A stretch of DNA of 64,000 nt from Candidatus Poribacteria bacterium (GTDB lineage: Bacteria; Poribacteria; WGA-4E; WGA-3G). Position numbers and translations under genes: made by a program. This document shows, piece by piece, positions 6,555 to 62,107 of the stretch (the stretch's first letter is position 1; each line of letters starts with the position of its first letter). Location: contig CBDBFU010000014.1 of assembly GCA_965205025.1 (NCBI GenBank), positions 128,001 through 192,000 of the forward strand. The letters are read 5' to 3'. The notes beneath the pieces were generated by a model, which saw nothing but the letters and a program-made list of their open reading frames with translations, made no database searches and was not told the origin of the DNA.

Positions 6555-6650
6555 TTACCCCAGAGGGGTAATATGTCTATAGAAAATGGTGTATTCACCC
6601 CTTGCACTCCAGCGGAGTGCTATGTCTATAAATAAGTGGCAACTTAAGAT
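6555..6650. repeat. REP-like hairpin doublet (family D) with a right end matching the MITE-E TIR
   Basis: ttacccc-aga-ggggtaa-tatgtctatagaaa, then gcactcc-agc-ggagtgc-tatgtctata 49 bp later. The end agtggcaacttaag resembles ggtggcaacttggg at 52210. Confidence 0.75.
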
Positions 6651-6689
6651 AAAATAACAACCATTAACCAATAACTGATAGGAGTTTAT

Positions 6690-7013
6690 ATGGCATTTTT
6701 TGAATTAAGGCAATACCGCACACAACCCGGACAACGCGACAACTGGGTAAAATATATGGAAGAAACAGTTATACCATTTCAGATTTCAAAAGGAATGGTA
6801 GTTATCGGAAGTTTCATCGGTGAGGAAGAAGATGACCTTTACGTCTGGATACGACGGTTTGAAAGTGAAGAACAGCGGGAACAACTTTACGCTGCTGTTT
6901 ATGAAGATGACCGATGGGTAAATGAGATTTCACCAAAAGTTGGAGAACTCATTGATAGATCCAAGATTGAGGTTACACGTATGGAACCCACTTCACGCTC
7001 ACCACATCAATAG
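6690..7013 (+). CDS. NIPSNAP family protein
   Basis: FELRQY start, GMVVIGSF and YVWIRRFESEEQRE pattern, 107 aa, GGAG RBS. Confidence 0.85.
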   Translation: MAFFELRQYRTQPGQRDNWVKYMEETVIPFQISKGMVVIGSFIGEEEDDLYVWIRRFESEEQREQLYAAVYEDDRWVNEISPKVGELIDRSKIEVTRMEPTSRSPHQ

Positions 7014-7030
7014 AATTACGGAGATACCGT

Positions 7031-7777
7031 ATGAATACTGAAGAAAAATATCTGTTCGATCTATGGGGATATGTCAATATTGAAGGTGTGTTGGGTGAAG
7101 AAGATTTGACAGAACTCAATGCATTAATTGATTCACAAAACTATCCTGATCCCAAGGACGATGATATCCATTCACAACGTTTCGGTGGTTTCTTAAGCTG
7201 GGAAAATGACGCGTTTCGGAGACTTCTAAACCATCCACGTATCATGCCGTGTTTAGCTGAGATTGTGGGACCTAAATTTAGACTTGATCATGTCTACGGT
7301 ATCTTGATGATAGATGGTAATCCAGGGGGTACACTTCACGGTGGCGGAACACCTTACGACCCATCACAATATTATGTCTTCAGAAATGACCGGATGTATA
7401 ACGGTCTAACTGTAGTATCATGGGCATTAACAGATATGCTTCCTGAACACGGTGGTTTCTGTTGTATCCCCGGAAGTCATAAAAGCAACTATCCCTGTCC
7501 TCCACAGTTCCGTCCCGTGGTAGACAACAAGACCTGTATGGCACCCGTTCATCAAAAGGCAGGAGATGTCGTTATTTTTACAGAGGCATTGACACATGGA
7601 ACGCTGCCCTGGACTGCAACACATGAACGTCGCTCAATTCTATTCAAATATTCTCCAGGACATGCATCCTGGGGACAAGGTAGATATGACGATGACCTAC
7701 GGGAACTCATGACCGAAGAAGATCAGAAATTAATGCTTGAACCACCTTACGTCGCACATCGAAAAACAGTGGTGTAA
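7031..7777 (+). CDS. Phytanoyl-CoA dioxygenase (PhyH) family protein
   Basis: GGFCCIPGSHK, AGDVVIFTEALTHG and ERRS motifs. Confidence 0.9.
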   Translation: MNTEEKYLFDLWGYVNIEGVLGEEDLTELNALIDSQNYPDPKDDDIHSQRFGGFLSWENDAFRRLLNHPRIMPCLAEIVGPKFRLDHVYGILMIDGNPGGTLHGGGTPYDPSQYYVFRNDRMYNGLTVVSWALTDMLPEHGGFCCIPGSHKSNYPCPPQFRPVVDNKTCMAPVHQKAGDVVIFTEALTHGTLPWTATHERRSILFKYSPGHASWGQGRYDDDLRELMTEEDQKLMLEPPYVAHRKTVV

Positions 7778-7816
7778 TACGGTGTGTAAAAGATTTTCAT
7801 TTTACCTAACACCAAT

Positions 7817-7880
7817 GAAATCTCAATTCCAATTCATCCTGTCTGAATTTCGAGATTGACAGTTTATTCTTCACTACTAT
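7817..7880. repeat. Degenerate dispersed repeat (family F), copy 1
   Basis: aaatctcaattccaa...tgacagt..attc.tcactac is shared with 33638-33700. Confidence 0.55.
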
Positions 7881-7999
7881 AGTTTGGACAATTCTAATTT
7901 AGGGAAACTGAGTATCTAATAATAAGTCTATTTTAACGCCAGCTTGATAATAAGAAATGTCAGTTCTATAAACAGTATTTTGTCCTGAGGACAATCTTT

Positions 8000-8024
8000 G
8001 TAGCACAAACTTTCCAGTTTGTGC
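8000..8024 (+). repeat. GTAG-type REP-like hairpin
   Basis: GTAG-cacaaact-ttcc-agtttgtg; the same hairpin recurs near 14480, 25581, 51746, 56036, 61845 and 62028. Confidence 0.75.
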
Positions 8025-8108
8025 AATCGGGTGTTAGTTAAAAGTTCGGGTTACAATGTGTCTTATCAAACTCACTTTATTTTAGGAGTTTTCTATATCA
8101 AAAATACC

Positions 8109-8180
8109 GTACTCCAGCGGAGTACTATGTCTATAGAAAACAATATCCTAACAGACTGGCACTCCAGCGGAGTGCTATGT
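8109..8180. repeat. REP-like hairpin doublet (family D)
   Basis: gtactcc-agc-ggagtac-tatgtctatagaaa and gcactcc-agc-ggagtgc-tatgt, 50-bp period. Confidence 0.8.
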
Positions 8181-8240
8181 GTCAATACACTTCGTATGAA
8201 AAACATATAAGTACTTAACACATATTCAAGTAATATATGA

Positions 8241-8370
8241 ATTAACAAATGTGATTCACGGAGAAATGGTCTACTTTAAAATATAAACCCTTATAGAATA
8301 AGGCTTCGTAGAATTGCTCCGTGAAGGTTTCCGTGAAAGTACAATCATCTCGGAACGATAAATATTAACA
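8241..8370. repeat. 130-bp dispersed palindromic element (family C), copy 1
   Basis: Collinear with 33943-34072 and 51875-52004: ttcacggag...aaacccttatagaataagg...ctccgtgaaggtttccgtgaaa...aatattaaca. Confidence 0.9.
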
Positions 8371-8502
8371 CCTTTCTCCATTTACATAATCCATACATCT
8401 AACATAATACGGAACTGTGTGTCTATGGTTCTATGCATTAAATTTACACTGACAACTGACTATCGTTGACTGAGAGCCAATAGTTGACGGCTGATAGTTA
8501 AT

Positions 8503-9823: not shown

Positions 9824-9943
9824 ACGTGAGTTTGATAGTAGGCAAATAAGCTTCATTTTTCAAAAAATATTACTCTTATATGCCCGGTAGGTGCGGTTTC
9901 CTAACCGCACCGAACATAAAAATATGATTTATCAAACTCACGT
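9824..9943. mobile_element. 120-bp MITE (family B), copy 1, with REP cargo
   Basis: TIR acgtgagtttgata/tatcaaactcacgt, 7-bp TSD ttaacta, internal GTAG-gtgcggtt-tcct-aaccgcac hairpin; near-identical to 31059-31178. Confidence 0.9.
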
Positions 9944-12431: not shown

Positions 12432-12477
12432 AAAAGATTACGAGTAATGAAATAAAATTCATTACTCGTAATCTTTT
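12432..12477. other. Perfect 20-bp inverted repeat between divergent genes
   Basis: aaaagattacgagtaatgaa-ataaaa-ttcattactcgtaatctttt. Confidence 0.9.
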
Positions 12478-14448: not shown

Positions 14449-14707
14449 TACCATTTCTAATTGAAAATGTCTCTTTTTGTACCACAAACTTTATGAGGAT
14501 TAAGAAAATATTTCGGTAATTCTAATTTTCCAAAATCCGGTAGGTGCGGTTTCCTAACCACGGGGAATGCCATAAGGCATTCATACCGTTGATTTGGATC
14601 TTATCTTTAATAATACCGAATTTAAAAATTAATCTTCATCAGTTTGGGACCTGAAAAATGACTACCATAATAACCGCCTAATGAGACAATAATTTATAGA
14701 AATAGTA
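14449..14707. mobile_element. MITE family A with nested insertion
   Basis: Ends taccatttc/gaaatagta with TTA on both flanks; matches 56004-56116 apart from a 147-bp insert. Confidence 0.85.
14493..14639. mobile_element. Nested 147-bp TIR element (family G) inserted in a REP hairpin loop
   Basis: Ends atgaggattaa/ttaatcttcat plus ttcggta/taccgaa; carries ccggtaggtgcggtttcctaacc; absent from the 56004 copy. Confidence 0.8.
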
Positions 14708-20851: not shown

Positions 20852-20990
20852 TACCATTTCTTTTAACCTATCAAACACCTACATACGTACTTTAATGAGT
20901 ATCGTAGGGAATGAAATGTCTGTAGAAACGACTGAACTTAGAATATCATTTCCACTGCTAATAATGTATTCAAATCAAATAGAATTGGTA
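20852..20990. mobile_element. MITE family A, degenerate
   Basis: Ends taccatttc/gaattggta; internal atgtctgtagaaa resembles the family D tail. Confidence 0.55.
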
Positions 20991-22113: not shown

Positions 22114-22251
22114 TTAATACTATAGTATTACATTTCTTGTCAATTAATCTTATCTTCTTAACAGGTTATATCACTAAAGGGAACAGGTGTTACATAACCT
22201 TGGACATTAACCATAGGCGTCAATTTAGGAGAAAAAATGTTGTATCCCAGT

Positions 22252-22279
22252 CCGGTAGGTGCGGTTTCTAACCGCACTG
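22252..22279 (+). repeat. GTAG-type REP-like hairpin
   Basis: ccggtaggtgcggtttctaaccgcactg. Confidence 0.8.
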
Positions 22280-22344
22280 AATTTATGCCAAACCTTGGAT
22301 TGAAAGTTTTCTCGTATAATCCATAATTAAATTCTAAAATCAAT

Positions 22345-25518: not shown

Positions 25519-25660
25519 CACCAATCCTTCTTTGTACCACGGTTAATCTTCGGGTATTTTATAACGGGGAACGTCTAAATGTAACACAAACTTCCAGTTT
25601 GTGTAGTGTTTCAAGCAAAAATATCACCTAATCATGGGAGAATCATTTATAGAAATGGTA
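25519..25660. mobile_element. MITE family A, degenerate left end
   Basis: gtaacacaaacttccagtttgtg core and catttatagaaatggta right end, as in the 61992 copy. Confidence 0.6.
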
Positions 25661-25725
25661 TTAGTAGGTTCGGTTCTAACCAAGGTCATTTCCATACACC
25701 GATACACTTATAATTACACTTCACT

Positions 25726-25752
25726 CGGTAGGTTCGGTTTCTAACCGAACCG
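25726..25752 (+). repeat. GTAG-type REP-like hairpin variant
   Basis: cggtaggttcggtttctaaccgaaccg shows a compensatory change relative to the 9886 copy; a partial copy lies at 25664. Confidence 0.75.
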
Positions 25753-25944
25753 GAATTTCAATCTAATAAGTTTACATTCTAACCAATTCCATAAGCTCTG
25801 TTTCTAGATTCAGATAAGTGTATACATTTCCTCTCTACCACAGTACGATTACAATCGCGTGTAAAATTTACAGATTAAAAGAAAAACGGATTGGCATTAA
25901 CTAAATCTAATTGCCAATCCGTTTTGATAATTTATATAGAAGTA

Positions 25945-26814
25945 TTAGGCACCGTTACCGTTTCCGTTGCCATTACCATTTCCATTTCCGTTACCATTTC
26001 CGTTGCCATTACCATTGCCGTTGCCATTACCATTTCCATTACCGTTACCATTTCCGTTGCCGTTACCGTTTTCACTATCATCCATCTTTGGATCATCCAT
26101 CTCTGAATCATCCTTGTCTGGGTCATCCATCTCTGAATCATCCTTGTCTGGGTCATCCATTTCTGAATCATCCATCTTTGGATCATCCATCTTTGGATCA
26201 TCCATCTTTGGATCATCCATCTTTGGATCATCCATCTTTGGATCATCCATCTTTGGATCATCCTTCATCAATGATACAAAGACATAATCATTACCTTCTC
26301 CAGCCTTTGAATGACACTGGTCACAATTATTAGTTCCTTCTTCATTGATAGGGATGTTGTTGCCATCAACTCCATACATCCATCCACCAAGATTAACATA
26401 CATCGGATCATCGGTTTTTGTCATTGTTGCGACATGTACGATTTGATCTGCCATTTCATCTACACCAAAAACTTCCTTGACAATCATAGATCCCACAGGA
26501 TACATCTTATCGCCTTCAGACATGTTTGCTGCTGCCGCGGCTTCGTTGAAATAGACAGTCCGAGGACCAGGTGTATGTGCCGCACCGGTTCCTGCCGGAT
26601 TCATTGCTGCTGCAGCTTCCGCAACAGTCATCATGGGTGCTTCAAGGTCAACACTCATCCATGACTTATGCGCCATCATATCCATATCTTCTTCAGGGTC
26701 CATTATCTCTGGATCCATCATAACCTCATCTAACATGTCTTGAGTACGCTCACAAGCCATGAAGGCTACCGAACAAATTAAAACTGTAATCAAGAGCACT
26801 TGATATCTTAGCAT
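25945..26814 (-). CDS. Cytochrome P460-like lipoprotein with low-complexity C-terminal tail
   Basis: Lipobox FMAC; RTVY, PVGSMIVKE, GGWMY and CDQCH...DYVF motifs; tail of (MDDPK/MDDSE)n then (NG)20. Confidence 0.8.
   Translation of the reverse strand: MLRYQVLLITVLICSVAFMACERTQDMLDEVMMDPEIMDPEEDMDMMAHKSWMSVDLEAPMMTVAEAAAAMNPAGTGAAHTPGPRTVYFNEAAAAANMSEGDKMYPVGSMIVKEVFGVDEMADQIVHVATMTKTDDPMYVNLGGWMYGVDGNNIPINEEGTNNCDQCHSKAGEGNDYVFVSLMKDDPKMDDPKMDDPKMDDPKMDDPKMDDPKMDDSEMDDPDKDDSEMDDPDKDDSEMDDPKMDDSENGNGNGNGNGNGNGNGNGNGNGNGNGNGNGNGNGNGNGNGA
25951..26265 (-). repeat. Coding tandem repeats: 6-nt NG x20 and 15/30-nt MDDPK/MDDSE units
   Basis: Perfect ggatcatccatcttt repeats; the NG tract uses mixed synonymous codons. 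Confidence 0.95.
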
Positions 26815-31058: not shown

Positions 31059-31178
31059 ACGTGAGTTTGATAATAGGCAAATAAGCTTCATTTTTTAAAA
31101 AATATTACTCTTATATGCCCGGTAGGTGCGGTTTCCTAACCGCACTGAACATAAAAATATGGTTTATCAAACTCACGT
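31059..31178. mobile_element. 120-bp MITE (family B), copy 2
   Basis: Same TIR and REP cargo as the 9824 copy; 7-bp TSD tagtata. Confidence 0.9.
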
Positions 31179-34072: not shown

Positions 34073-34124
34073 CTTATTGACATATATGTCCAGCGTTACA
34101 TGTTGGGTTGGCAATTCCCGCCAC

Positions 34125-35333: not shown

Positions 35334-35357
35334 GTTGAAATTATTAGAGAGCAGCGT

Positions 35358-35944: not shown

Positions 35945-35988
35945 ACTATTGAAGAAAGAAATGAAGCATAATAAAGTGATAGAATCTT

Positions 35989-38030: not shown

Positions 38031-38123
38031 TCGAGGATTGGAATCCCCTCCTATAGAAGAGAAGATCAGGGATTCGAAACCCCTACTACAGATGAGGATA
38101 ACGGGTGTGGAAATCCCATACAG
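38031..38123 (-). repeat. Three degenerate tandem REP-like units
   Basis: tcgaggattggaatcccctcctata / tcagggattcgaaacccctactaca / acgggtgtggaaatcccataca. Confidence 0.55.
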
Positions 38124-39580: not shown

Positions 39581-40670
39581 CAGGACTTACGCAAAATTAC
39601 AAAATGTGTTATTCTTATTGATTATGAACACATTTACACATTCTAAAAAGAAGCAAGACTTATTTTCCGATTATTGTCAATATTTGTTTTCAAGTTTTAC
39701 TAATTTTACACAAACTTATTTTGCTAAACATACAGACCGTTGGAGCCACGATCAACTCAATCGCTTTCTGAGAGACGAAAACATTCCTACAAGTGAACTC
39801 TGGGCATCCGTCAAAGACGACATCGACTTTGATGAAGAAGGATACCTGATTTTTGATGATGTTGTGCTGTCAAAAATACATTCTAAACGGATTGAAATAG
39901 TACGCTCTCAATGGAGTGGTAGTGACAGAAAGGTGATTCAAGGTATCGGTATTGTCACCTGTCTCTATGTCAACCCTAAGACACAGGAATATTGGGTCAT
40001 TGATTACCGTATTTTTGACAGAGATCATGACGGTAAAACCAAAATCGATCATTTATTGGATATGTTGCACGATGCTTATTCTAAGAAACAACTCCCATTC
40101 CGGACAGTCTTGATGGACTCTTGGTATGCGTCCATGAAAGTGATGAAAGCGATTGATAGACTTTCTAAGATCTATTATGTTCCGTTGAAACGAAACCGTC
40201 TTGTGAATGATACCAAAGGTGTAGAACCTCACAAGGCAGTCAAAGATCTATCTTGGTCTCAAGCAGAAAAGAAAAGCGGTAAACGCGTACATCTCAAAAA
40301 CTTTCCGAAAGGTTCTGTCGTAAAGTTATTCCGGTTTGTGTCTGATACCGGACGCACGGAATATATAGTGACAAACGATTTGACACAATCAAATGTGGAT
40401 ATGACTCACCAAAAGTGTCGTCTCCGTTGGAAGATTGAACTCCTTCATCGTGAGATGAAACAAGTAACCGGTATTGGTAAATGCCAATGTCGTAAGGTGC
40501 GTGCCCAGAGAAATCATATTGCGTGTAGTTTCCAAGTATGGGTCTTTATGACGCGTGTTGTACGTGCTGTTGGACAAAAGATTTACGAGTTTAAAGATGG
40601 TTTATTGAGTGATTACTTAAAACATCAACTCTCAAATCCTTCAATAAAATTTAAAACTGCGTAAGTCCTG
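39581..40670 (+). mobile_element. IS701-family-like insertion sequence, intact
   Basis: 13-bp perfect TIR caggacttacgca/tgcgtaagtcctg; 6-bp TSD attaca at 39575-80 and 40671-76. Confidence 0.93.
39606..40664 (+). CDS. DDE transposase (IS701-like)
   Basis: SHDQLNRFL, LIFDD, VLMDSWY and RWKIExxHRExKQxxG motifs; the stop codon lies in the right TIR; start may be 39624. Confidence 0.9.
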   Translation: MLFLLIMNTFTHSKKKQDLFSDYCQYLFSSFTNFTQTYFAKHTDRWSHDQLNRFLRDENIPTSELWASVKDDIDFDEEGYLIFDDVVLSKIHSKRIEIVRSQWSGSDRKVIQGIGIVTCLYVNPKTQEYWVIDYRIFDRDHDGKTKIDHLLDMLHDAYSKKQLPFRTVLMDSWYASMKVMKAIDRLSKIYYVPLKRNRLVNDTKGVEPHKAVKDLSWSQAEKKSGKRVHLKNFPKGSVVKLFRFVSDTGRTEYIVTNDLTQSNVDMTHQKCRLRWKIELLHREMKQVTGIGKCQCRKVRAQRNHIACSFQVWVFMTRVVRAVGQKIYEFKDGLLSDYLKHQLSNPSIKFKTA

Positions 40671-47900: not shown

Positions 47901-47942
47901 CGTGAGACTATACTATATGTCGTAATTAAACATATCTTGGTC

Positions 47943-47972
47943 TTGCTATTTATAGGTGAAATCTGTTATATT
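47943..47972 (+). promoter_or_regulatory. Putative promoter, duplicated at 52041-52070
   Basis: TTGCTA-N18-TATATT with TG; conserved in both duplicated units. Confidence 0.55.
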
Positions 47973-48143
47973 AAGGGACATGGTAGCCGAGAAATTGAAA
48001 AATCAAACCATAAATTTAGAACTTTTCTTGAAGATTTACGTCTATATACATGGGATTATTTTGAAATAAAAGCAATTAAAATGAAATTATGAATAGTGTA
48101 TTATTAAAAAATCTTTAGCAGCAGAAAATTACAGGAGAATATC

Positions 48144-51100
48144 ATGAATACAAGGGAAGGTTATACCGAACTACAATCTAAGATATTAGATGCACGACGT
48201 GTATGGAAACGAAGCCTCTTCTGGACAGGAGCCGCTATCGTACTAATTGGACTTCTTGCGATCCTTGTTGGAGAATCAATTGTAGATTGGTTGATGCCAC
48301 TCCCAAGTACTGTTCGGGTTGTAATGCTTGTAGGTATTGTTGTAGCAGTAATCTACCTACTATATAGACACATCATACAACCCTTGAAAGCTTCGTTAAC
48401 GTTGCGAGACGTAGCACTAAACGTTGAGGAGAAACATCCCAATCTTGAAGATAGACTTGTAAGTGCAGTTCAATTCGGATCACGCGAATCTGATGATCCC
48501 ATTGAATCTCATATGCTACAACGTCTCCTTGAAGATACTACTAATAAAATTAAAGGCATTGATTTTAAGGCTACAATCGACCACAGCCGGACTCGAAAAT
48601 ATGTTAGTATTGCAATCTTAGTAATTGCTGCATGCGGCTTACTCACTCTCCTATTTCCTACAGAGATACAGACCAGTTTAATGAGAGTATTGGTTCCATG
48701 GGAGAAAACAAAACCCATTTTATCTACGAAAGTCGCCGTTTCACCTGGAAATGCTCGTATTCTTATAGGAAAGAGTTTACCAATTGATGTGACTGTAACT
48801 GGGAAAACTACTGATAAAGCAATCTTAACATATTATAGCAAAGATAACCCACCCACTGCTGATAGTGAAGGAAGCAAAAAAGAGATAAATATGCTGCAGA
48901 ATCCTGATGATAAACGGGGTTTTGCCTATGAACTCTTCAATATCGAAGCAGAGATGGAATACTTTGTTACTGTCAATGAGACCACATCTGAACGATACAC
49001 GATTGAGGTATTTGAAATGCCAAGGGTGGAAGATATCTCTGTCGCATACACCTATCCTGAATATACTGGTCTCACCCCGGTTATTCAACAAGGAAGCGGA
49101 GATGTACAAGCTGTCGTCGGTTCAACAGCAGAAATTCGCATCACAGCTAATAAAGCAATTCAGAAGGCTACATTCACACATCAGACTTCAAAGACTGAAC
49201 CTATTATTGATGAGATTGATGAAGATAAAGAAATCACACCAGATTCTCCTGAAATGATTATCGCAGATGGCAACATACTTACGAAGACACTACAAGTTAC
49301 CGAGGATGGAAAATACAGTGTAGAACTGCTCTGTATTGATAACTTTAATAATGAAATTCCTATTGAATACAATATAAAAGCTAATCCAGATAACCCTCCA
49401 GAAGTGGTAATCAAAGAACCCGGACGCGATGTCAAAGCTTCAATACTCGAAGAGGTTAAAATCGTTACTGAAGCAACAGATGACTTTGGGGTTGAACAAC
49501 TAAAACTGATGTACCGAATAGGGGGTGGAGAATTACAGGAACTCCTTATGGAATCTCCTGTTGAACAACTATCTGAAGATAGTAATACGGGACCCGCAAA
49601 ACACTTTAAATCTGGTACATATACATTCTATTTGGAAGAATTTGATGTTGAACCGGGTGAAATAATTACATATTATGCACAGGCTATTGACAACAATACA
49701 CTAACTGGCCCCAGTGAAGGTAAGAGCGATATTTTTTTCATAGAGATTAAACCCTTTAATCAACGACTTTCAGAAGGTGAACCATCAGAAGACGGAATGC
49801 CAAACCCATTCCTTGAATTAATTGCTTCACAGAAACAAATTATACGTGAAACATGGAATCACATTAACTCACAACCACCCACCATGACAGAAGATTACAT
49901 ATCAGCAGTCAAAAAGACTGGAACGAAGCAATCAGAATTAAAAGATAGAACTCAGAAGGTTACAGATGAATTGAGCATGCAAATGCAAGAAGTACAAATC
50001 GATCCAGAAATAATGATGAACCTTGAAGAAGCTATTGATATGATGGGTGAGGCAACAAATCATCTAAATGACACACAACCCACTACTGCAATTCCACCTG
50101 AACAAGCCGCTCTTGAACTCCTTATAAAAGTCAATCTGGCATTTCCAAAAGTGCTTAGGCAAGCAAGGAATAGCCAACCCCAACTTGCTGAGAACTTTGA
50201 ACTGGAAATGGAAGATCTGCAGAATGAACTTGAGCAAAATCAGGAAGAACTCGAACGGGAGATGCAAGAACAGACACAGGAAATGTTAGACCAAGCCAGA
50301 GAAATGCTGGCACAACAACAGAATCTAAATCAACAGAGTCAACAAATGGGGAGAGAAAGTCAACCATCTCCAAGTGATATGCAGCAGAACAGTCAACAAC
50401 AAGGCGAGTTAGCACAACAGGCACAGCAGATGTCACAACAACTCGGTGAAATGCAAGGCAATGCTCAGGGCACACAGAGTGAACGTTTATCACAAGCAGG
50501 ACAAGCGATGGAGCAAGCCGGTGAACAGATGCAACAAGCATCACAAGGCATGGAACAGCAACAACCCCAGTTGAGTGCCGCAAAAGGTGAAAAAGCTGAA
50601 GAACGGCTCGAACAAGCCATCGATCAACTTGAAAGGGCTGCCGCTGAATTCACTGATAACGCATTAGAGAGAACAGCTGAACAACTACAACAGTTGACCG
50701 CTGAACAATCTGATGTTCAACAGCAAACACAAGAATTACGAGAAAGATCTCAGGAAACTGGGATGCGTCCAGAAGATTACAGACAAGCTTCTGAACTCGC
50801 AAATGAACAACGCCAACTCCAACGAGACTTAGAATCTGTTGAAGAGAATTTGAATAATCTATCAGAGCAACTCAACCAAGAGAATCCTGAGGCTGCACAG
50901 AATGTTCAGAACGCATCAAGGCGACTCTCTGAAGAACAAACTTCAGAAGATATGGGAACAGCTCAAAGAGCATTACAATGGCGAAGTCTACAATCTGCTG
51001 AATTAAATCAACAAGAAGCTCTTGATACTCTACGAGAAGCACAAAACGATCTGCAACAGGCAAGGTCTAACATGGCACGCAATGAAGAAGAGCAACTTGA

Positions 51101-51653
51101 AGCTACACTTGACCAACTCCAAAGTTTTGAAGAACAGATGCAGGATATTCAACGCGAACGGGAAGCGATGGAAGGACAAGAACAAACAGAGGAGCAACAA
51201 CAGCGAGAACAACAACTTGCTGAACAACAACAGCAACTCGAAGAGCGTATGCAACAAGCACAACAAGCTATGCAAAACGCACAGCAAGGTCAGCAGCCCG
51301 GACAAGAGGGACAGCAACCCGGTGAACAAGGGCAGCAACCCGGGCAGCAGGGTCAACAAGGACAACAACCCGGTGAAAATGACTTGGCAAGAAGTGGACC
51401 TGAATCCAATCGTGAGATTAAGGAACTCTGGTTAGATCTTCTTGATAGTGCACAGTATCGTGCCGGAAATCGTAAGAATCCGTTCCCAAATTATGAACTC
51501 GCAATACGAGACCTGAGAAAACTTGAGACCGCTATTGAAGAACGGCTTAACCTCCTACAAGAGATGAAACAGCTAACTCAAGTTGCTAAGGAAGATGTAC
51601 CACCAAAATACAGAAGACTTGTTGACAACTACTACGAATCTTTAGCAAAGTAG
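48144..51653 (+). CDS. DUF4175-like membrane-anchored coiled-coil protein, copy 1
   Basis: N-terminal TM helices, LEDRLVSA, DNPPEV, ATDDFGV, Q/E-rich coils, C-terminal VPPKYRRLVDNYYESL. Confidence 0.8.
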   Translation: MNTREGYTELQSKILDARRVWKRSLFWTGAAIVLIGLLAILVGESIVDWLMPLPSTVRVVMLVGIVVAVIYLLYRHIIQPLKASLTLRDVALNVEEKHPNLEDRLVSAVQFGSRESDDPIESHMLQRLLEDTTNKIKGIDFKATIDHSRTRKYVSIAILVIAACGLLTLLFPTEIQTSLMRVLVPWEKTKPILSTKVAVSPGNARILIGKSLPIDVTVTGKTTDKAILTYYSKDNPPTADSEGSKKEINMLQNPDDKRGFAYELFNIEAEMEYFVTVNETTSERYTIEVFEMPRVEDISVAYTYPEYTGLTPVIQQGSGDVQAVVGSTAEIRITANKAIQKATFTHQTSKTEPIIDEIDEDKEITPDSPEMIIADGNILTKTLQVTEDGKYSVELLCIDNFNNEIPIEYNIKANPDNPPEVVIKEPGRDVKASILEEVKIVTEATDDFGVEQLKLMYRIGGGELQELLMESPVEQLSEDSNTGPAKHFKSGTYTFYLEEFDVEPGEIITYYAQAIDNNTLTGPSEGKSDIFFIEIKPFNQRLSEGEPSEDGMPNPFLELIASQKQIIRETWNHINSQPPTMTEDYISAVKKTGTKQSELKDRTQKVTDELSMQMQEVQIDPEIMMNLEEAIDMMGEATNHLNDTQPTTAIPPEQAALELLIKVNLAFPKVLRQARNSQPQLAENFELEMEDLQNELEQNQEELEREMQEQTQEMLDQAREMLAQQQNLNQQSQQMGRESQPSPSDMQQNSQQQGELAQQAQQMSQQLGEMQGNAQGTQSERLSQAGQAMEQAGEQMQQASQGMEQQQPQLSAAKGEKAEERLEQAIDQLERAAAEFTDNALERTAEQLQQLTAEQSDVQQQTQELRERSQETGMRPEDYRQASELANEQRQLQRDLESVEENLNNLSEQLNQENPEAAQNVQNASRRLSEEQTSEDMGTAQRALQWRSLQSAELNQQEALDTLREAQNDLQQARSNMARNEEEQLEATLDQLQSFEEQMQDIQREREAMEGQEQTEEQQQREQQLAEQQQQLEERMQQAQQAMQNAQQGQQPGQEGQQPGEQGQQPGQQGQQGQQPGENDLARSGPESNREIKELWLDLLDSAQYRAGNRKNPFPNYELAIRDLRKLETAIEERLNLLQEMKQLTQVAKEDVPPKYRRLVDNYYESLAK

Positions 51654-51681
51654 ATAGCAGCATTCTACTTAAGAAGAATTT

Positions 51682-51713
51682 GGGACAATATGGGAAAACC
51701 CAGTTGTCCCTTT
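51682..51713 (+). terminator. Rho-independent terminator
   Basis: gggacaa-ta-tggg-aaaa-ccca-g-ttgtccc-ttt. Confidence 0.75.
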
Positions 51714-51717
51714 CTTA

Positions 51718-51826
51718 TACCAATTCTTATAATAGTCTCTTTAATGTACCATAAACTCCCAGTTTGGGCGGTATTTCAAGACATGCGTAACAACTATACA
51801 TGGAATAAACATTTATGGAAATGGTA
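51718..51826. mobile_element. MITE family A with REP cargo
   Basis: Ends taccaattc/gaaatggta; body similar to 61992-62107. Confidence 0.8.
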
Positions 51827-51874
51827 TCAGATGAAACCAAAGTTGTATTCCGCTTATACTTAAGTTATGCAAAT

Positions 51875-52004
51875 ATTAACGCATGTGATTCACGGAGAAT
51901 TGGGGTTATTAAATTTATAAACCCTTATGGTGTAAGGGTTCGTAAAATTGCTCCGTGAAGGTTTCCGTGAAAGTGCAATCATCTCAAAACGATAAATATT
52001 AACA
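51875..52004. repeat. 130-bp element (family C), copy 3
   Basis: Collinear with the copies at 8241 and 33943; lies in the duplication junction. Confidence 0.9.
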
Positions 52005-52071
52005 ATGTTTTGCCAATCACACCCCAACTGTTGAAATGACTTGCTATTTATATGTGAAATCTGTTATATTA

Positions 52072-52224
52072 ACCTAAGTTGCTACCAACGGATTTTGATC
52101 GTTTCAACACAGTTTTTTAGACACCTGCCTCACTCCAAAGGGGTGATATGTCTATAGAAAAAGGTATATCAACATCCTGCACTCCAGCGGAGTGGTATGT
52201 AAGTAAATAGGTGGCAACTTGGGT
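52072..52224. mobile_element. 153-bp MITE (family E) carrying a family D hairpin doublet
   Basis: TIR acctaagttgctacc/ggtggcaacttgggt, TSD tatatta; the empty site is at 47967-47973. Confidence 0.9.
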
Positions 52225-52403
52225 TATATTAAGGGATATGACAACAGGGAAATTGAAAATCTAACCATAGATTTAGAACTTTTCTTGAAGATTTACGTCT
52301 ATATACATGGGATTATATTGAAATAAAAGCAATTAAAATAGAACAATTATGAATAGTGTATTATTAAAAGATCTTTAGCAGCAGAAAATTACAGGAGAAA
52401 ACA

Positions 52404-55400
52404 ATGAATACAAGAGAAGGTTATACCGAACTACAATCTAAGATATTAGATGCACGACGTGTATGGAAACGAAGCCTCTTCTGGACAGGAGCCGCTATCG
52501 TAATTATCGGACTTCTTGCGATCCTTGTTGGAGAATCAATTGTAGATTGGTTGATGCCACTCCCAAGTACTGTTCGGGTTGTAATGCTTGTAGGTATTGT
52601 TGTAGCAGTAATCTACCTACTATATAGACACATCATACAACCCTTGAAAGCTTCGTTAACGTTGCGAGACGTAGCACTAAACGTTGAGGAGAAACATCCC
52701 AATCTTGAAGATAGACTTGTAAGTGCAGTTCAATTCGGATCACGCGAATCTGATGATCCCATTGAATCTCATATGCTACAACGTCTCCTTGAAGATACTA
52801 CTAATAAAATTAAAGGCATTGATTTTAAGGCTACAATTGACCACAGCCGGACTCGAAAATATGTTAGTATTGCAATCTTAGTAATTGCTGCAAGCGGCTT
52901 ACTCACTCTCCTATTTCCCACAGAGATACAGACCAGTTTAATGAGAGTATTGGTTCCATGGGAGAAAACAAAACCCATTTTATCTACGAAAGTTGACGTT
53001 TCACCTGGAAATGCTCGTATTCTTATAGGAAAAAGTTTACCAATTGATGTGACTGTAACTGGAAAAACTGCAGATAAAGCCACACTAACATATTATAGCA
53101 AAGATAACCCACCAACGGTTGATAGTGATGGAAGCAAAAAAGAAATAAATATGCTACAGAATCCTGATGATAAACGGGGTTTTGCCTATGAACTCTTCAA
53201 TATCGAAGCAGAGATGGAATACTTTGTTACTGTCAATGAGACCACATCTGAACGATACACGATTGAGGTATTCGAAATGCCGAGGGTGGAAGATATCTCT
53301 GTCGCATACACCTATCCTGAATATACTGAACTCAGTCCAGTTGTTCAACAAGGAAGTGGAGATGTACAAGCTGTCGTCGGTTCAACAGCAGAAATACGTA
53401 TCACAGCTAATAAAGCAATTCAGAAGGCTAAATTCACACATCAAACTTCAAATACTGAACCTATCATTGATAGGATTAATGAAGAAACAGAAGTCACACC
53501 AGATTCTCCTGCAATGACTATCGCAGACAGCAACATACTGACAAAGACACTACAAGTTACCGAGGATGGAAAATACAGTGTAGAACTGCTCTGTATTGAT
53601 AACTTTAATAATGAAATTCCTATTGAATATAATATAAAAGCAAATCCAGATAACCCTCCAGAAGTGGTAATCAAAGAACCCGGACGCGATGTCAAAGCTT
53701 CAATACTCGAAGAGGTTAAAATCGTCGCAGAAGCTACAGATGACTTTGGGGTTGAACAGTTAAAACTGATGTACCGTACCGGTGCTGGGGAATTACAGGA
53801 ACTCCTTATGGAATCTCCTGTCGAACAACTATCTGAAGATAGTAATACTGGACCTGCAAAACACCTAAAATTTGGTTCATATACCTTCTATTTGGAAGAA
53901 TTTGATGTAGAACCAGGTGAAATATTATCATATTATGCACAGGCTATTGACAACAATATACTAACTGGACCCAGTGAAGGAAAAAGCGATATTTATTTCA
54001 TAGAGATTAAACCCTTTAATCAACGACTTTCTGAGGATGAACCATCAGAAGGTTCTTGTCCAAACCCATTTCTTGAGTTAATTGCTTCACAGAAACAAAT
54101 TATACGTGAAACATGGAAACATATTAACTCACAACCACCCACCATAACAGAAGATTACATATCTGCAGTCAAAAAGACTGGAACGAAGCAATCAGAATTA
54201 AAAGATAAAACTCAGAAGGTTACAGATGGATTGAGCATGCAAATGCAAGAAGTACAAATCGATCCAGAAATCATGATGAATCTTGAAGAAGCTATTGATA
54301 TGATGGGTGAGGCAACAAATCATCTAAATGACACACAACCCACTACTGCAATTCCACCTGAACAAGCCGCTCTTGAACTCCTTAATAAAGTCAATCTGGC
54401 ATTTCCAAAAGTGCTTAGGCAAGCAAGGAATAGCCAACCCCAACTTGCTGAGAACTTTGAACTGGAAATGGAAGATCTGCAGAATGAACTTGAGCAAGAT
54501 CAGGAAGAACTCGAACGGGAGATGCAAGAACAGACACAGGAAATGTTAGACCAAGCCAGAGAAATGCTGGCACAACAACAGAATCTAAATCAACAGAGTC
54601 AACAAATGGGGAGAGAAAGTCAACCATCTCCAAGTGATATGCAGCAGAACAGTCAACAACAAGGAGAATTAGCACAACAAGCACAGCAGATGTCCCAACA
54701 ACTCGCTGAAATGCAAGGCAATGCTCAGGACACACAGAGCGAACGTTTATCACAAGCAGGACAAGCGATGGGGCAAGCCGGTGAACAAATGCAACAAGCA
54801 TCACAAGGAATGGAACAGCAACAACCCCAATTGAGTGCCGCAAAAGGTGAAAAAGCTGAAGAACGACTTGAACAAGCCATCGATCAACTTGAAAGGGCTG
54901 CCGCTGAATTCACTGATAACGCATTAGAGAGAACAGCTGAACAACTACAACAGTTGACCGCTGAACAATCTGATGTTCAACAGCAAACACAAGAATTACG
55001 AGAAAGATCTCAGGAAACTGGGATGCGTCCAGAAGATTACAGACAGGCTTCTGAACTCGCAAATGAACAACGCCAACTCCAACGAGACTTAGAATCTGTT
55101 GAAGAGAATTTGAATAATCTATCAGAGCAACTCAACCAAGAGAATCCTGAGGCTGCACAGAATGTTCAGGACGCATCAAGGCGACTCTCTGAAGAACAAA
55201 CTTCAGAAGATATGGGGACGGCTCAAAGAGCATTACAATGGCGAAGTCTACAATCTGCTGAGTTAAATCAACAAGAAGCTCTTGATACACTACGAGAAGC
55301 ACAAAATGATCTGCAACAGGCAAGATCTAACATGGCACGCAATGAAGAAGAACAACTTGAAGCTACGCTTGACCAGCTCCAAAGTTTTGAAGAACAGATG

Positions 55401-55904
55401 CAGGATATTCAACGCGAACGGGAAGCGATGGAAGGACAAGAACAAACAGAGGAGCAACAACAGCGAGAACAACAACTTGCTGAACAACAACAGCAACTCG
55501 AAGAGCGTATGCAACAAGCACAACAAGCCATGCAAAATGCACAGCAAGGTCAACAACCCGGTGAACAACTCGGACAGCAGGGAGAGCAACCCGCACAGCA
55601 GGGACAACGGGGACAAGAACCCGCAGAAAATGACTTAGCAAGAAGTGGTCCAGAATCCAATCGTGAGATCAAGGAACTCTGGTTAGATCTTATTGACAGT
55701 ATGCAGTATCGTGCCGGAAATCGTAAGAATCCGTTCCCAAATTATGAACTCGCAATACGAGATCTGAGAAAACTTGAGACCGCTATTGAAGAACGGCTTA
55801 ACCTCCTACAAGAGATGAAACAACTAACTCAAGTTGCTAAGGAAGATGTACCACCAAAATACCGAAGACTTGTTGACAACTACTACGAATCTTTAGCAAA
55901 GTAG
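52404..55904 (+). CDS. DUF4175-like protein, copy 2 (tandem paralog)
   Basis: Nearly identical to 48144-51653. Confidence 0.8.
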   Translation: MNTREGYTELQSKILDARRVWKRSLFWTGAAIVIIGLLAILVGESIVDWLMPLPSTVRVVMLVGIVVAVIYLLYRHIIQPLKASLTLRDVALNVEEKHPNLEDRLVSAVQFGSRESDDPIESHMLQRLLEDTTNKIKGIDFKATIDHSRTRKYVSIAILVIAASGLLTLLFPTEIQTSLMRVLVPWEKTKPILSTKVDVSPGNARILIGKSLPIDVTVTGKTADKATLTYYSKDNPPTVDSDGSKKEINMLQNPDDKRGFAYELFNIEAEMEYFVTVNETTSERYTIEVFEMPRVEDISVAYTYPEYTELSPVVQQGSGDVQAVVGSTAEIRITANKAIQKAKFTHQTSNTEPIIDRINEETEVTPDSPAMTIADSNILTKTLQVTEDGKYSVELLCIDNFNNEIPIEYNIKANPDNPPEVVIKEPGRDVKASILEEVKIVAEATDDFGVEQLKLMYRTGAGELQELLMESPVEQLSEDSNTGPAKHLKFGSYTFYLEEFDVEPGEILSYYAQAIDNNILTGPSEGKSDIYFIEIKPFNQRLSEDEPSEGSCPNPFLELIASQKQIIRETWKHINSQPPTITEDYISAVKKTGTKQSELKDKTQKVTDGLSMQMQEVQIDPEIMMNLEEAIDMMGEATNHLNDTQPTTAIPPEQAALELLNKVNLAFPKVLRQARNSQPQLAENFELEMEDLQNELEQDQEELEREMQEQTQEMLDQAREMLAQQQNLNQQSQQMGRESQPSPSDMQQNSQQQGELAQQAQQMSQQLAEMQGNAQDTQSERLSQAGQAMGQAGEQMQQASQGMEQQQPQLSAAKGEKAEERLEQAIDQLERAAAEFTDNALERTAEQLQQLTAEQSDVQQQTQELRERSQETGMRPEDYRQASELANEQRQLQRDLESVEENLNNLSEQLNQENPEAAQNVQDASRRLSEEQTSEDMGTAQRALQWRSLQSAELNQQEALDTLREAQNDLQQARSNMARNEEEQLEATLDQLQSFEEQMQDIQREREAMEGQEQTEEQQQREQQLAEQQQQLEERMQQAQQAMQNAQQGQQPGEQLGQQGEQPAQQGQRGQEPAENDLARSGPESNREIKELWLDLIDSMQYRAGNRKNPFPNYELAIRDLRKLETAIEERLNLLQEMKQLTQVAKEDVPPKYRRLVDNYYESLAK

Positions 55905-55932
55905 ATAGCAGCATTCTACTTAAGAAAAATTT

Positions 55933-55964
55933 GGGACAATATGGGAAAACCCAGTTGTCCCTTT
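55933..55964 (+). terminator. Rho-independent terminator (duplicate)
   Basis: Identical to the 51682 hairpin. Confidence 0.75.
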
Positions 55965-56003
55965 CTTATACCAATTCTTATAATTATAGTCTCTTTAATG
56001 TAA

Positions 56004-56116
56004 TACCATTTCTAATTGAAAATGTCTCTTTTTTGTACCACAAACTTTCAGTTTGTGACCTGAAAAATGACTACCATAATAACCACCTAATGAGACAATA
56101 ATTTATAGAAATGGTA
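56004..56116. mobile_element. MITE family A abutting a truncated family A left end (55969-56003)
   Basis: TIR taccatttcta/tagaaatggta, cargo gtaccacaaactttcagtttgtg. Confidence 0.85.
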
Positions 56117-59445: not shown

Positions 59446-60052
59446 ATTCCTCTTGGAAGAACGTTCTACAGAGGTAACACTAATTGAAATATTGTCCAAG
59501 ATTATCCCTGAAAATGTTGACTTCAAATGTCATGTTTTTCAAGGAAAAGAGGATTTACTTAAGCAACTTCCTAATAGGTTGAAAGGGTACCGTCAGTGGA
59601 TACAAGATGATTGGCGGATTGTGGTACTGATTGATGAAGATCGGGAGGATTGTCTTGAACTGAAACAGAAGTTAGAAAATGTTGCACGTCAGGTAGGCTT
59701 TTATACTAAATCCAATAAGTCCCAAACTGGCAACTTTCAAGTAGTTAATCGCATAGCAATTGAAGAATTAGAAGCTTGGTTTTTAGGAGATCCGATAGCA
59801 ATTCGGTATGCTTATCCGAAAGTCTCAAAATCCTTTCATCGCCGTTCCAAGTATCGCAACCCTGATAAGATACAAGGTGGCACCAGTGAAGCATTAGAAC
59901 GATTGTTAAAACAATATTACCCAAATTGGTTCCCTAAGGTTGAAGTTGCCCGAAACATTGCTCACTATATGCAACCAGAACGTAATAAATCAAAAAGTTT
60001 CCAAGTATTCATCGAAGGAGTTAAGGCTTGTGTTGAGAATTACAATGTATAA
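59435..60052 (+). CDS. DUF4276 family (TOPRIM-like) protein
   Basis: [22 protein letters not shown] and NKSKSF motifs; overlaps the ATPase stop. Confidence 0.85.
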
Positions 60053-60141
60053 TTCAATCCGTATGGATATTCATGTATAGGTATTCAATACAAAAATAGA
60101 AAATTTTACAACTACTCACTAAATCTAATCAAGGAGAACTA

Positions 60142-60936
60142 ATGTTTAATATTCTATATCTTAGAAAATCAAAATCTATAAAGATAATAGCACATAATTA
60201 TGTGTCGTTATTAATTCCTCTGACAGTTCTATTCTGTAGTCTCATCTTCACCCCAGTAGTTAAGGCACAAGATATATTACTACAAACAGGATTTGAGGAT
60301 TTCACTATAGGTGAACCACCAACTGATTGGCAGGTAAGAGGGGAACAGATCAATGTTACCGACGAAACCGCTAAAAACGGTAATAAGTCTCTCGGAATTT
60401 TTGGCGGATCAAATGATGATAGATGTGGGGTCGCTATTGATACAGAAAATCCTATCATTTCTGTCGAATTTTGGGTGTTCATCAATGGATCTGGAAGAGC
60501 ATTCAACCTAAAGGTTATCTCTGATGATAACATCCACGCGAATGACGGTGGAGTATACATGAATTGGAATGTAAATGCAGTCCGTTTATACAACGGATCG
60601 GCATGGGTCGCTATTGGTGAATTCCCATTTGGAAGTTGGAGATATGTTCGAGTTGTCGCAGATGTAAGTAAGAGTGAATTTGATTATTATGTTGGAAAAG
60701 ATAGAGACGAAGCACTATTGGCTGAACCAATTTCAGGACTATCCTTTAGAAAACCTGCCACTAATCCCACAGCACAATGGGTTGTTTTTCATATCTATTC
60801 ATCGGTTGCCCAAGGGTTTGTAGATGATTTACTCATCTATGAAGGCGCAGATCCACCCGTCTCAACACCTGTCGAATCCAAAGATAAGCTTACAACTTAC
60901 TGGGGACAGGTCAAGAAACAATCCCATTTACGATAG
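60142..60936 (+). CDS. Secreted concanavalin A/LamG-like beta-sandwich protein, paralog 1
   Basis: Signal peptide (VKA-Q), GFE, SVEFWV, VDDLLIY; C-terminal KLTTYWGQVK. Confidence 0.7.
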   Translation: MFNILYLRKSKSIKIIAHNYVSLLIPLTVLFCSLIFTPVVKAQDILLQTGFEDFTIGEPPTDWQVRGEQINVTDETAKNGNKSLGIFGGSNDDRCGVAIDTENPIISVEFWVFINGSGRAFNLKVISDDNIHANDGGVYMNWNVNAVRLYNGSAWVAIGEFPFGSWRYVRVVADVSKSEFDYYVGKDRDEALLAEPISGLSFRKPATNPTAQWVVFHIYSSVAQGFVDDLLIYEGADPPVSTPVESKDKLTTYWGQVKKQSHLR

Positions 60937-61008
60937 ATACCATTTATCGTATCGAAGTTTGGTTAGACACAATTAATCGATTAGATACAAATTCGATAAG
61001 GAGAGAAA

Positions 61009-61773
61009 ATGAAGAAAAGGTACAGATTCAAAGTCAAGAGAACATCTATAGCAGTAGTACTTGTTCTACCATTAATGTGTCTTCTTCTAAACTTCTATCT
61101 CTTACAAGATGCCGTTTCCCAAAAGGTCTTTATACAAACTGGATTTGAAAAAGAAACCGTGGGTAAACCACCAAAGGATTGGGAAGTTAGAGGTGAAGGT
61201 TTTGAGGTGACAACAGATACCGTCAAAACAGATAAGAAAGCACTTGCAATCTTGCTTGGACCTAATGATGATAGAGTAGGAGTTCCAATTGAAACTGACA
61301 ATCCAATCATTTCAATTGAATTTTGGGTTTATATTGAAGGTGGGGGTAGATCATTTAACCTCAAAATAATTACTGCAGATGATATAGCACAACACAATGG
61401 TGGTCCATATATCAATTGGAATGGTGATTCTGTCCGTCTTTTTGATGGAGCGGCATGGGTTCTAATTGATGAATTTGATACTAATGAATGGATATATGTT
61501 CGCGTTGTTACAGATGTAAGCAAAAGTGAATTTGATTTCTATTCTGGGGAGGATCGAAATCTGGCATTAAAAGACCGTGGTAAAAAAGGACTCCCATTTC
61601 GTAACCCCGCAGTAAATCCTACTGCCAAATGGGTTGCTTTCCATGTTTATTCAATGACAGCACCTGCCTATGTAGATGATGTGTTAATCTACGAAGGCGA
61701 CGAACCGATAAACTTGGCAGTTGATCCACTCGGAAAACTCACGACTTTCTGGGGAAATATTAAAAAGGAATAA
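61009..61773 (+). CDS. Secreted concanavalin A/LamG-like protein, paralog 2
   Basis: Collinear with paralog 1; C-terminal KLTTFWGNIK. Confidence 0.7.
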   Translation: MKKRYRFKVKRTSIAVVLVLPLMCLLLNFYLLQDAVSQKVFIQTGFEKETVGKPPKDWEVRGEGFEVTTDTVKTDKKALAILLGPNDDRVGVPIETDNPIISIEFWVYIEGGGRSFNLKIITADDIAQHNGGPYINWNGDSVRLFDGAAWVLIDEFDTNEWIYVRVVTDVSKSEFDFYSGEDRNLALKDRGKKGLPFRNPAVNPTAKWVAFHVYSMTAPAYVDDVLIYEGDEPINLAVDPLGKLTTFWGNIKKE

Positions 61774-61843
61774 TCCTTTAGTCTCACCAAGAAACAAAGG
61801 ACAGATACATGATATGAATCAATAATAACATTAATTTCTACCT

Positions 61844-61902
61844 TGTACCACAAACTTCCAGTTTGTGCCTCTTGATGTCTCAAACTGGAAGTTCACCTTA
61901 CA
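61844..61902. repeat. Inverted REP-like doublet
   Basis: gtaccacaaacttccagtttgtg...caaactggaagtt...ttaca. Confidence 0.65.
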
Positions 61903-61991
61903 GAAATTGACTAACTATCAGCATTTCCAATTAAAGACTGTGTTTCCATGTCAAAAAACCTATAGGTAACAACTTAGCATAAAATTAGTAA

Positions 61992-62107
61992 TACCATTTC
62001 TGATAATTAATGTCTCTCTTATGTGGTGTAGCATAAACTTCCAGTTTGTGCGGTATTCAAGACAAGTTTGACAACTGTTCATGGGATAAACATTTATAGA
62101 AATGGTA
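61992..62107. mobile_element. MITE family A with REP cargo
   Basis: TIR taccatttct/agaaatggta, TAA TSD, cargo gtagcataaacttccagtttgtg. Confidence 0.85.

Follow-up and report, generated by a model that had tools for sequence, protein, structure and literature searches.

A 64-kb stretch of the genome of a Candidatus Poribacteria bacterium (contig CBDBFU010000014.1, positions 128,001 to 192,000; "the window" below means this whole stretch) contains, between its genes, short elements with inverted ends, here called shells and grouped in families A, B, E and G, which enclose hairpins similar to repetitive extragenic palindromes (REPs). We give a probability of about 0.6 to the reading that Poribacteria intergenic regions hold two nested layers of small non-coding mobile DNA, of which the first would consist of cut-and-paste miniature inverted-repeat transposable elements, or MITEs (families A, B and E), and the second of REP-like, GTAG-tagged stem-loops lying singly, in inverted pairs, in tandem arrays or inside elements of the first layer. 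Hairpins are copied as passengers with a transposing shell, and hairpins already in place receive insertions of small units, as well as of the element G, in their loop or next to their GTAG tag, also where these hairpins lie within MITEs.

The copying of whole elements is seen in B1 and B2 (96.7% identical), which occupy sites with different 7-bp duplications, and in the close relatives A1 and A2. Insertion into hairpins is seen in the window in A1, where G splits the loop of the CACAAACT hairpin at a point at which A2 (87-96% identical) is continuous. It is also seen in another Poribacteria metagenome-assembled genome (MAG), where ~33-nt units resembling one part of G (H6, below) stand at one point in 0 (L081), 1 (L022) or 3-4 copies (L069), just 3' of the GTAG tag of elements of the A/H7 type (at 2968-3114 in L022; a half element in L069), and in a Fremyella plasmid (L107), where the hairpin loop of a Nostoc-type shell is split by ~90 nt. 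A preliminary description of the stretch had proposed a hybrid system of REPs and mobile shells; its shell-borne copying and its insertion into hairpins are upheld by these cases, while the free interchange that it envisaged is not.

We propose that the combinations of shell and cargo arise from these two kinds of event in turn: hairpin units, or G, insert into or beside resident hairpins, those carried by MITEs included, and an enclosed hairpin is then copied whenever its shell transposes. Insertion would preferentially take place where a folded MITE or hairpin exposes a single-stranded apex.

Shells and their target duplications

All four shell families of the preliminary description were found at their positions. 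Those of family A have the form TACCAWTTC...GAAWTGGTA, with ~30-nt imperfect inverted arms beginning TACCAWTTCT, and are 109-139 bp long (259 bp for A1, because G lies inside it). The end TACCATTTC occurs 16 times in the window against 0.81 expected, a count reached by 0 of 100 shuffles; ten of the matches are ends of A elements, two lie in or at genes, and four (25974-26054) are chance matches explained by coding tandem repeats of 15 nt and 12/18 nt, which form the 3' part (plus-strand 25940-26290) of a cytochrome P460-domain gene on the minus strand (25945-26814). Alignment and exact flanks gave seven copies and one fragment, in agreement with the approximately seven copies claimed before, and all seven elements lie in the same orientation, on the plus strand. 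The TWA flanks that had been ascribed to the family proved to be a 3-bp target duplication of the form TNA, which is identical on both sides in 3 of the 7 window copies (A1 TTA, A3 TAA, A5 TTA); the flanks of A2, A4 and A7 are unequal and the left end of A6 (A6r in Table 1) is lost. The differing cargos reported for A shells were found as well, namely CACAAACT in five copies, CCCCCT/GGGGG in A5 and another interior in A7.

The termini of family B occur 6 times against 0.64 expected, and 7-bp duplications flank 3 of 3 copies, so that the ends and duplication claimed earlier are confirmed in B1 and B2 and extended to a third copy, B3. The B elements are 120-142 bp long, E is 153 bp and G 147 bp, all with inverted ends, and B and E have in common that their ends start with AC and that the duplication is 7 bp. 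The termini of E and G alone are not above chance (their counts were reached by 13 and 30 of 100 shuffles respectively), but both are real insertions, because uninterrupted counterpart sequences exist. The counterpart of G is A2. That of E is provided by a tandem duplication of ~4.1 kb (window 47942-56002; copies 94.8% identical over 3806 nt), the copies of which carry DUF4175-domain genes (48144-51653 and 52404-55904); the first copy keeps the uninterrupted site while the second holds E with TATATTA on both sides, and thus E inserted after the duplication. At its right boundary the duplication ends within an A element, which is A4 in the one copy and A4', fused to A2, in the other, so small elements mark the rearrangement and they may have mediated it. 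A second copy of G was found neither in the window nor in the ~343 kb that other loci provide. Compared with shuffled sequences, A2, A5, B1 and G have much lower single-strand folds (z -3.4 to -7.7), and A3 and B3 less so.

Table 1. Positions of shells and of free hairpin units in the window (fold z, single-strand fold compared with shuffled sequences).
Feature	Position	Strand	Description
A1	14449-14707	+	TACCATTTC...GAAATAGTA; TTA/TTA; G nested inside; identity to A2 87% and 96% in the two parts flanking G
A2	56004-56116	+	CACAAACT hairpin; flanks TAA/TTA; adjoins A4'; fold z -5.0
A3	61992-62107	+	GTAG-CATAAACT hairpin; duplication TAA/TAA; fold z -2.3
A4	51718-51826	+	TACCAATTC end; 80% identical to A3; flanks TTA/TCA
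A4' (32-nt fragment)	55969-56000	+	A4-type left arm only; stops at the boundary of the tandem duplication
A5	36684-36798	+	cargo GTAG-TCCCCCT..AGGGGGA / GGGGG; duplication TTA/TTA; fold z -4.5
A6r	25580-25660	+	right half only, with CACAAACT hairpin; left arm gone
A7	20852-20990	+	diverged A shell with GAATTGGTA end and different interior; flanks CAA/TTA
B1	9824-9943	+	ACGTGAGTTTGATA ends; 7-bp duplication TTAACTA; ~66-nt GTAG-GTGCGGTT unit; fold z -7.7
B2	31059-31178	+	96.7% identical to B1 over 123 nt; 7-bp duplication TAGTATA
B3	7936-8077	+	diverged B shell; 7-bp duplication TATTTTA; GTAG-CACAAACT hairpin, not GTGCGGTT; fold z -1.4
E	52072-52224	+	ends ACCTAAGTTGC / ACCCAAGTTGC; 7-bp duplication TATATTA; two tandem CACTCC..GGAGTG hairpins
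E empty site	47963-47977	+	CTGTTATATTAAGGG, uninterrupted, in the first copy of the tandem duplication
Ep (partial E)	6557-6650	+	right end and both hairpins; 80% identical to E
G	14493-14639	+	147 bp; ~11-26-nt imperfect inverted ends; no target duplication; fold z -3.4
Free tandem hairpin pair	8108-8174	+	CACTCCAGCGGAGTG hairpins, without E ends
Free ~66-nt unit	22213-22281	+	GTAG-GTGCGGTT; 75% identical to the B2 interior; the same unit forms the arrays of L055
Two free hairpins	25664-25685 (degenerate), 25726-25754	+	GTAG-GTTCGGTT; adjoin A6r; span 25664-25754
Free inverted hairpin pair	61843-61902	.	CACAAACT hairpins; REPIN-like doublet; second copy degenerate
Cluster of three tagged hairpins	38033-38123	-	GGGATT/AATCCC type; tags on the minus strand

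A-type elements also occur outside the window. A pattern scan of public genome contigs (ATACCAWTTC-N(88-118)-GAAWTGGTAT), a sample and not a census, gave at least 106 loci, of which those compared here (L001-L106, none from the window's own genome) are the matches listed, and all figures on A-type elements of other genomes refer to these. Identical 3-bp flanks were found in 92 of the 106 elements and all were of the TNA form (TTA 40, TAA 34, TGA 11, TCA 7), showing that these are products of transposition and not chance palindromes. The elements comprise 47 from cyanobacteria (mostly Nostocales, one Microcystis), 33 from Poribacteria, 12 Desulfobacterota-like, 3 from Chloroflexota, 7 from single lineages and 4 others; Verrucomicrobiota, Chlamydiota, Rickettsiales, Dadabacteria and a Peregrinibacteria MAG are among their sources, and the 11-nt termini are shared by at least eight phylum-level lineages. 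The presence of such MITEs in many phyla implies a widespread group of transposases. Each lineage has interiors of its own, and these are rich in hairpins: 45 of the 106 elements enclose a perfect stem of at least 7 bp, compared to 2.2% of 2120 shuffles, and 22 of them have a GTAG/CTAC-tagged interior, compared to 0.14% of shuffles. Matches of the window repeats over whole elements (80-88% identity), and those of 23-30-nt hairpin segments at 100% identity, were confined, among the 106 loci compared, to those of Candidatus Poribacteria MAGs.

Chance similarity of AT-rich intergenic palindromes, or an artefact of assembly, might be suspected from the chance-level termini of E and G, but it is refuted, and we give it practically no weight, as the counts of A and B ends are far above those of the shuffles, the TNA flanks match in 92 of 106 elements from independent genomes and the empty-site comparisons hold for E and G.

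Hairpins inside and outside the shells

The hairpins are stem-loops of 25-35 nt, mostly tagged with GTAG (or GTAC, ATAG) at one end, and fall into at least six sequence families, with 1 to 8 copies per family in the window by manual count. H1 (GTAG/GTAC-CACAAACT...AGTTTGTG) was located in five A copies and in B3, and is thus common to A and B shells. H2 (GGTAG-GTGCGGTT...AACCGCAC), part of a ~66-nt unit, was located in B1, B2 and G, which bears out the earlier statement that one GTAG-GTGCGGTT hairpin sits in both B and G shells; it is also present in A shells of four other loci (L041, L087, L095 and L060). H4 (ATAG-type CACTCC...GGAGTG), usually a tandem pair, was located in E and the partial E. 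H5 (GTAG-TCCCCCT...AGGGGGA) and H6 (a ~33-nt GGAATGCC...GGCATTC unit) have one copy each, in A5 and in G, where H6 follows a truncated GTAG-GTGCGGTT hairpin. The A5 cargo is also found in an A shell of another Poribacteria locus (L084) and is similar to the cargo of the Microcystis element (L039).

As had been reported, the enclosed hairpins are free-standing too, at four places in the window (the tandem pair, the ~66-nt unit, the two GTAG-GTTCGGTT hairpins and the inverted pair of Table 1). In other Poribacteria MAGs, the H6 unit is free in four loci (L003, L035, L069 and L070), and the ~66-nt GTGCGGTT-type unit forms an array of three tandem copies and one inverted copy without shell ends in L055 (a locus in which an A/H1 element also adjoins a truncated A element with a GCGCAAT hairpin). 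The hairpin of the Nostoc-type shell is found shell-less in Planktothrix and Pseudanabaena plasmids. An excess of REPs within shells had been set as a test in the preliminary description. Shells occupy 15% of the intergenic DNA (~10.4 kb, counting stretches of at least 60 nt), and by a curated count they contain 15 of the 25 hairpin copies (binomial 3e-7), a figure that is in part circular, since it was around hairpins that the shells were recognised.

How far cargo and shell are independent can be read from 44 Poribacteria-type A elements, which on alignment have ~30 nt in common at each end and an interior made of a tagged hairpin and a spacer. Their cargos, with classes assigned by eye, are CACAAACT (H1) in 27, GCGCAAT in 7, GTGCGGTT (H2) in 4, GGGGG (H5) in 2, GGGAATCGG (H7) in 2 and others in 2. 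By manual reading of the Nostocales elements, one ~27-nt arm pair encloses at least four unrelated interiors. "One shell, many cargos" therefore holds for the termini and, in Nostocales, for whole arms, without free shuffling over short times; the interchangeable cargo of the preliminary description stands for the 11-nt termini and over evolutionary time, and fails as free shuffling, as arms and cargo co-vary in Poribacteria. One further A element (L059, 2001-2125), in which by manual reading an H1 hairpin is joined past its loop to a variant hairpin of the CACATTCT type, appears from this junction to be another hybrid made at the hairpin apex.

A different explanation is that the hairpins are modules selected by the host (3'-end stabilisers, terminators or protein-binding sites), that MITEs containing one are retained and that the association is convergent. 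The small elements of the window are indeed strictly intergenic, the composite A/CACAAACT element is conserved in many Poribacteria MAGs and stems are kept by paired change, the CACAAACT stem having, by manual reading, changes on both sides that preserve the pair in L029, L073, L052 and L019. The tags are, in other Poribacteria loci, randomly oriented with respect to the flanking genes (11 co-directional, 10 opposite), which gives no support to a role at the level of the transcript, and a rule of transcript orientation was rejected on these numbers. As no T-run follows the stems, and retention would leave the nested insertions and arrays unexplained, we consider host selection to be quite improbable. 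In the window itself 19 tags belong to the plus strand and 4 to the minus strand (manual count), with only the cluster at 38033-38123 and the partner hairpin at 61881-61902 reversed, an excess that could reflect the direction of replication.

Another repeat, of ~150-170 nt, lies 17-30 nt from an A element in two cases. It is present at 8214-8384, 33916-34086 and 51848-52018 (76-81% identical within the window) and in another Poribacteria MAG (L035, 2145-2290; 86% identical), with a highly conserved core, TTAAC..ATGTGATTCACGGAG..CTCCGTGAAGGTTTCCGTGAAAG..AAATATTAAC. The 171-nt repeat has no Rfam match, and changes on both sides were seen in 0 of its 28 predicted pairs. In the window as a whole, no Rfam family reached the gathering threshold.

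Enzymes and alternative explanations

No RAYT (REP-associated tyrosine transposase) or Y1 gene was found by Pfam among the 47 open reading frames (ORFs) of the window. The search for an autonomous partner with exact ends 300-3000 bp apart returned only two MITE pairs. Three of 32 candidate pairs with one-mismatch ends (see below) were scanned with Pfam and rejected, as they hold TPR, methyltransferase and PALP proteins rather than transposases. A blastn comparison of the Nostoc-type element with plasmids gave 21 records, of which the two inspected were the same shell with a larger interior and a further MITE copy, with no insertion sequence (IS) in either. As no matching transposase and no RAYT were found in these searches, we infer both enzymes: DDE transposases with genes at other places in the genome would act in trans on the shells, and the hairpin units would be moved either by an HUH/Y1 (RAYT-like) enzyme specific for single strands or by template switching linked to replication.

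Several results weigh against two nested layers. No transposase associated with A, B, E or G ends was present among the 47 window ORFs, the one IS of the window has ends unrelated to these families, and neither a transposase nor a RAYT was among the 86 ORFs flanking 25 loci (22 Poribacteria, 3 Poribacteria-like) by NCBIfam; when one mismatch was allowed in the ends and the interval had to be filled by an ORF, ~407 kb gave a list of 32 candidate pairs, among which there was no recognisable IS. The assignment of family A to the IS5/IS1031 group is drawn from a single character, the TNA duplication, and the distribution of A-type elements comes from a sample. The ends of B, E and G were not seen in 36 other Poribacteria-type loci, and no shell lacking cargo was found in ~407 kb. 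The inner arms of the 44 Poribacteria-type A elements mostly track one cargo, so that these elements resemble plain MITE subfamilies, and among them there is a sole clear chimera (L098, in which two H1 hairpins are combined with an H2-type arm). In addition, the GGAATGCC unit has no GTAG tag of its own and in G it follows TAACC, not GTAG, and the random tag orientation given above has also to be counted here.

The main rival to the two-layer reading takes up several of these points and supposes a single mobile layer, in which ordinary MITE subfamilies share transposase-binding termini and the hairpins are simply their interiors, while the shared, free and arrayed hairpins would come about by recombination, gene conversion, template switching in the repair of excision gaps and the decay of old shells. 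It is in keeping with the co-variation of arms and cargo, with the copying of B1/B2 and A1/A2 as whole elements and with the lack of a RAYT among the 47 window and 86 flanking ORFs; moreover, the free GTGCGGTT unit at 22213-22281 resembles the entire interior of B, beyond the hairpin, and the meeting of A4' and A2 at the duplication boundary indicates that such elements recombine. We nevertheless think a single layer unlikely, because it does not readily account for tandem hairpin arrays without shell ends (L055), for the series of 0, 1 and 3-4 copies of a ~33-nt unit at one exact point in one genome, for the cyanobacterial hairpin lying shell-less in Planktothrix and Pseudanabaena plasmids, or for hairpin segments that are 100% identical over 23-30 nt across genomes with differing shells.

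Beyond the two-layer reading itself, a wider proposal may be put forward tentatively, as possible rather than probable: the GTAG hairpins of Poribacteria and Cyanobacteria could be an actively mobile, single-strand-transposing class which lands at the apices of folded DNA (beside a resident GTAG tag, in hairpin loops or at the centre of a MITE), and DDE and HUH/Y1 systems could repeatedly build co-propagating composites that arose, or were transferred with the TACCAWTTCT shell, across several phyla. If this were true, the series of 0, 1 and 3 copies would document, in nature, how units insert one after another at a GTAG site, and the long-open question of how REPs spread would become directly testable.

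The multiplication of REP-type hairpins has so far been argued mostly from genome statistics. Hairpins held within elements that have clean duplications give dated and bounded contexts in which the gain of a hairpin is visible as a discrete event, and serial insertions beside one GTAG tag are concrete substrates for a biochemical test. That many MITEs of Cyanobacteria, Poribacteria and sulfate reducers have one terminal signature and a TNA target in common suggests a single transposase group of wide distribution, and also that sponge symbionts and cyanobacteria are linked by gene flow or have converged. In annotation, these small repeats account for much of the intergenic DNA, and for at least one duplication boundary, in Poribacteria genomes.

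Genomic setting and relation to known repeats

The window (G+C ~39%) is most likely a segment of a chromosome, and the genome from which it comes is probably that of a sponge symbiont. The genes of the window include a fused glycyl-tRNA synthetase, HEAT and TPR repeat proteins, three sulfatases, four PhyH dioxygenases and two large DUF4175 paralogues, and ARAGORN found no tRNA in it. Its sole IS (39581-40670; 1090 bp) has inverted ends of 13 nt (CAGGACTTACGCA), is flanked by the 6-bp duplication ATTACA and contains a single DDE_Tnp_1/DDE_5 transposase ORF (39606-40664). At 34194-35988 a DNA methylase gene is followed by an ORF whose match to the MjaI restriction endonuclease profile covers no more than positions 1-69 out of 164, and the 300 nt after this ORF look coding, yet lie within no long ORF, suggesting that the restriction gene is possibly broken. 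Between divergent genes, at 12432-12477, lies a perfect inverted repeat of 20 bp, its loop being 6 nt long, which is unrelated to the repeat families.

Hairpin-forming repeats of 21-27 nt in Nostoc were reportedly described by Elhai et al. in 2008 as being inserted in other repeats and were argued to be mobile. A literature search gave no description of the shell termini (among the matches listed, the terminal strings matched only unrelated items such as primers), of such elements in Poribacteria, or of REPs enclosed in elements with target duplications. The claim that the arrangement is undescribed holds to that extent, and is qualified by partial precedents in the relevant portions of the papers cited here. 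In Anabaena variabilis, GTAG repeats (GTAG-15 dimers) are regularly inserted within long palindromes, which was remarked upon without being pursued in the same paper that defines GTAG-tagged REP families, cyanobacterial ones included (Di Nocera et al. 2013, PMC3733652). Bacterial interspersed mosaic elements (BIMEs), which are mosaics, and IS elements that target REPs are established (Delihas 2011, PMC3184786), and it has been suggested that repeats of greater complexity could be built from REPINs, which are inverted REP doublets (Bertels and Rainey 2011, PMC3116915). Nested composites of hairpins and MITEs are thus a less-studied variant of known repeat mosaics.

Compared with MITEs of bacteria, the shells are short (well within the usual bound of ~500 bp), non-coding and bounded by inverted repeats and have multiple dispersed copies, except that G is a single copy, and A, B and E have target duplications while G has none. 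The 3-bp TNA duplication of family A is that of the IS1031 subgroup of the IS5 family, for which a TNA target preference is reported (PMC1676026, in the part dealing with targets). Like the IS1031-derived and cyanobacterial type II MITEs, family A is small and non-coding, with inverted ends, a TNA duplication and many intergenic copies; unlike IS1031-derived MITEs, its TACCAWTTCT ends led to no parent IS in the sequences searched, and its interiors are lineage-specific tagged hairpins and not IS remnants. In this respect Anabaena sp. 90 has, from the part of its description that concerns them, many MITEs with ends matching no resident IS, and a disrupted IS5/IS1031 element is listed there (PMC3542288). 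Nezha, an Anabaena/Nostoc MITE of ~130-170 bp with ISNpu3-type ends and the best known of the cyanobacterial MITEs, resembles the shells in its inverted ends, but an identity of family A with Nezha was rejected, since the Nezha reference copy is given with a 10-bp direct repeat (PMC6042816) as against the 3-bp TNA of A.

Compared with GTAG REPs and REPINs, the hairpins are likewise palindromes of 20-40 nt with an end tag, in several families per genome and as single copies, inverted pairs or clusters; a palindrome of this size with an unpaired GTAG-like tag is seen in the CACAAACT, GTGCGGTT, TCCCCCT and CACTCC (ATAG) hairpins, and there are many intergenic copies, whether single, paired or clustered. 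They differ in that most copies here are single hairpins enclosed in duplication-flanked elements, that no RAYT was seen in the ORFs searched and that one inserting unit is tagless. The inverted doublet which forms the mobile unit of REPINs occurs only at 61843-61902, the shell copies being single hairpins or tandem pairs. The presence of G in a hairpin loop is, as far as the relevant portions of these accounts go, the same kind of event as the insertion of the REP-targeting IS1397, IS621 and IS1594, unlike which G is a 147-bp non-coding element without a duplication. Finally, the arrangement resembles the BIMEs of Escherichia coli, as set out in the corresponding part of their description, in being made of mosaics of hairpins with other short motifs, and it differs from them in that the mosaics here are bounded by transposon ends and copied as units.

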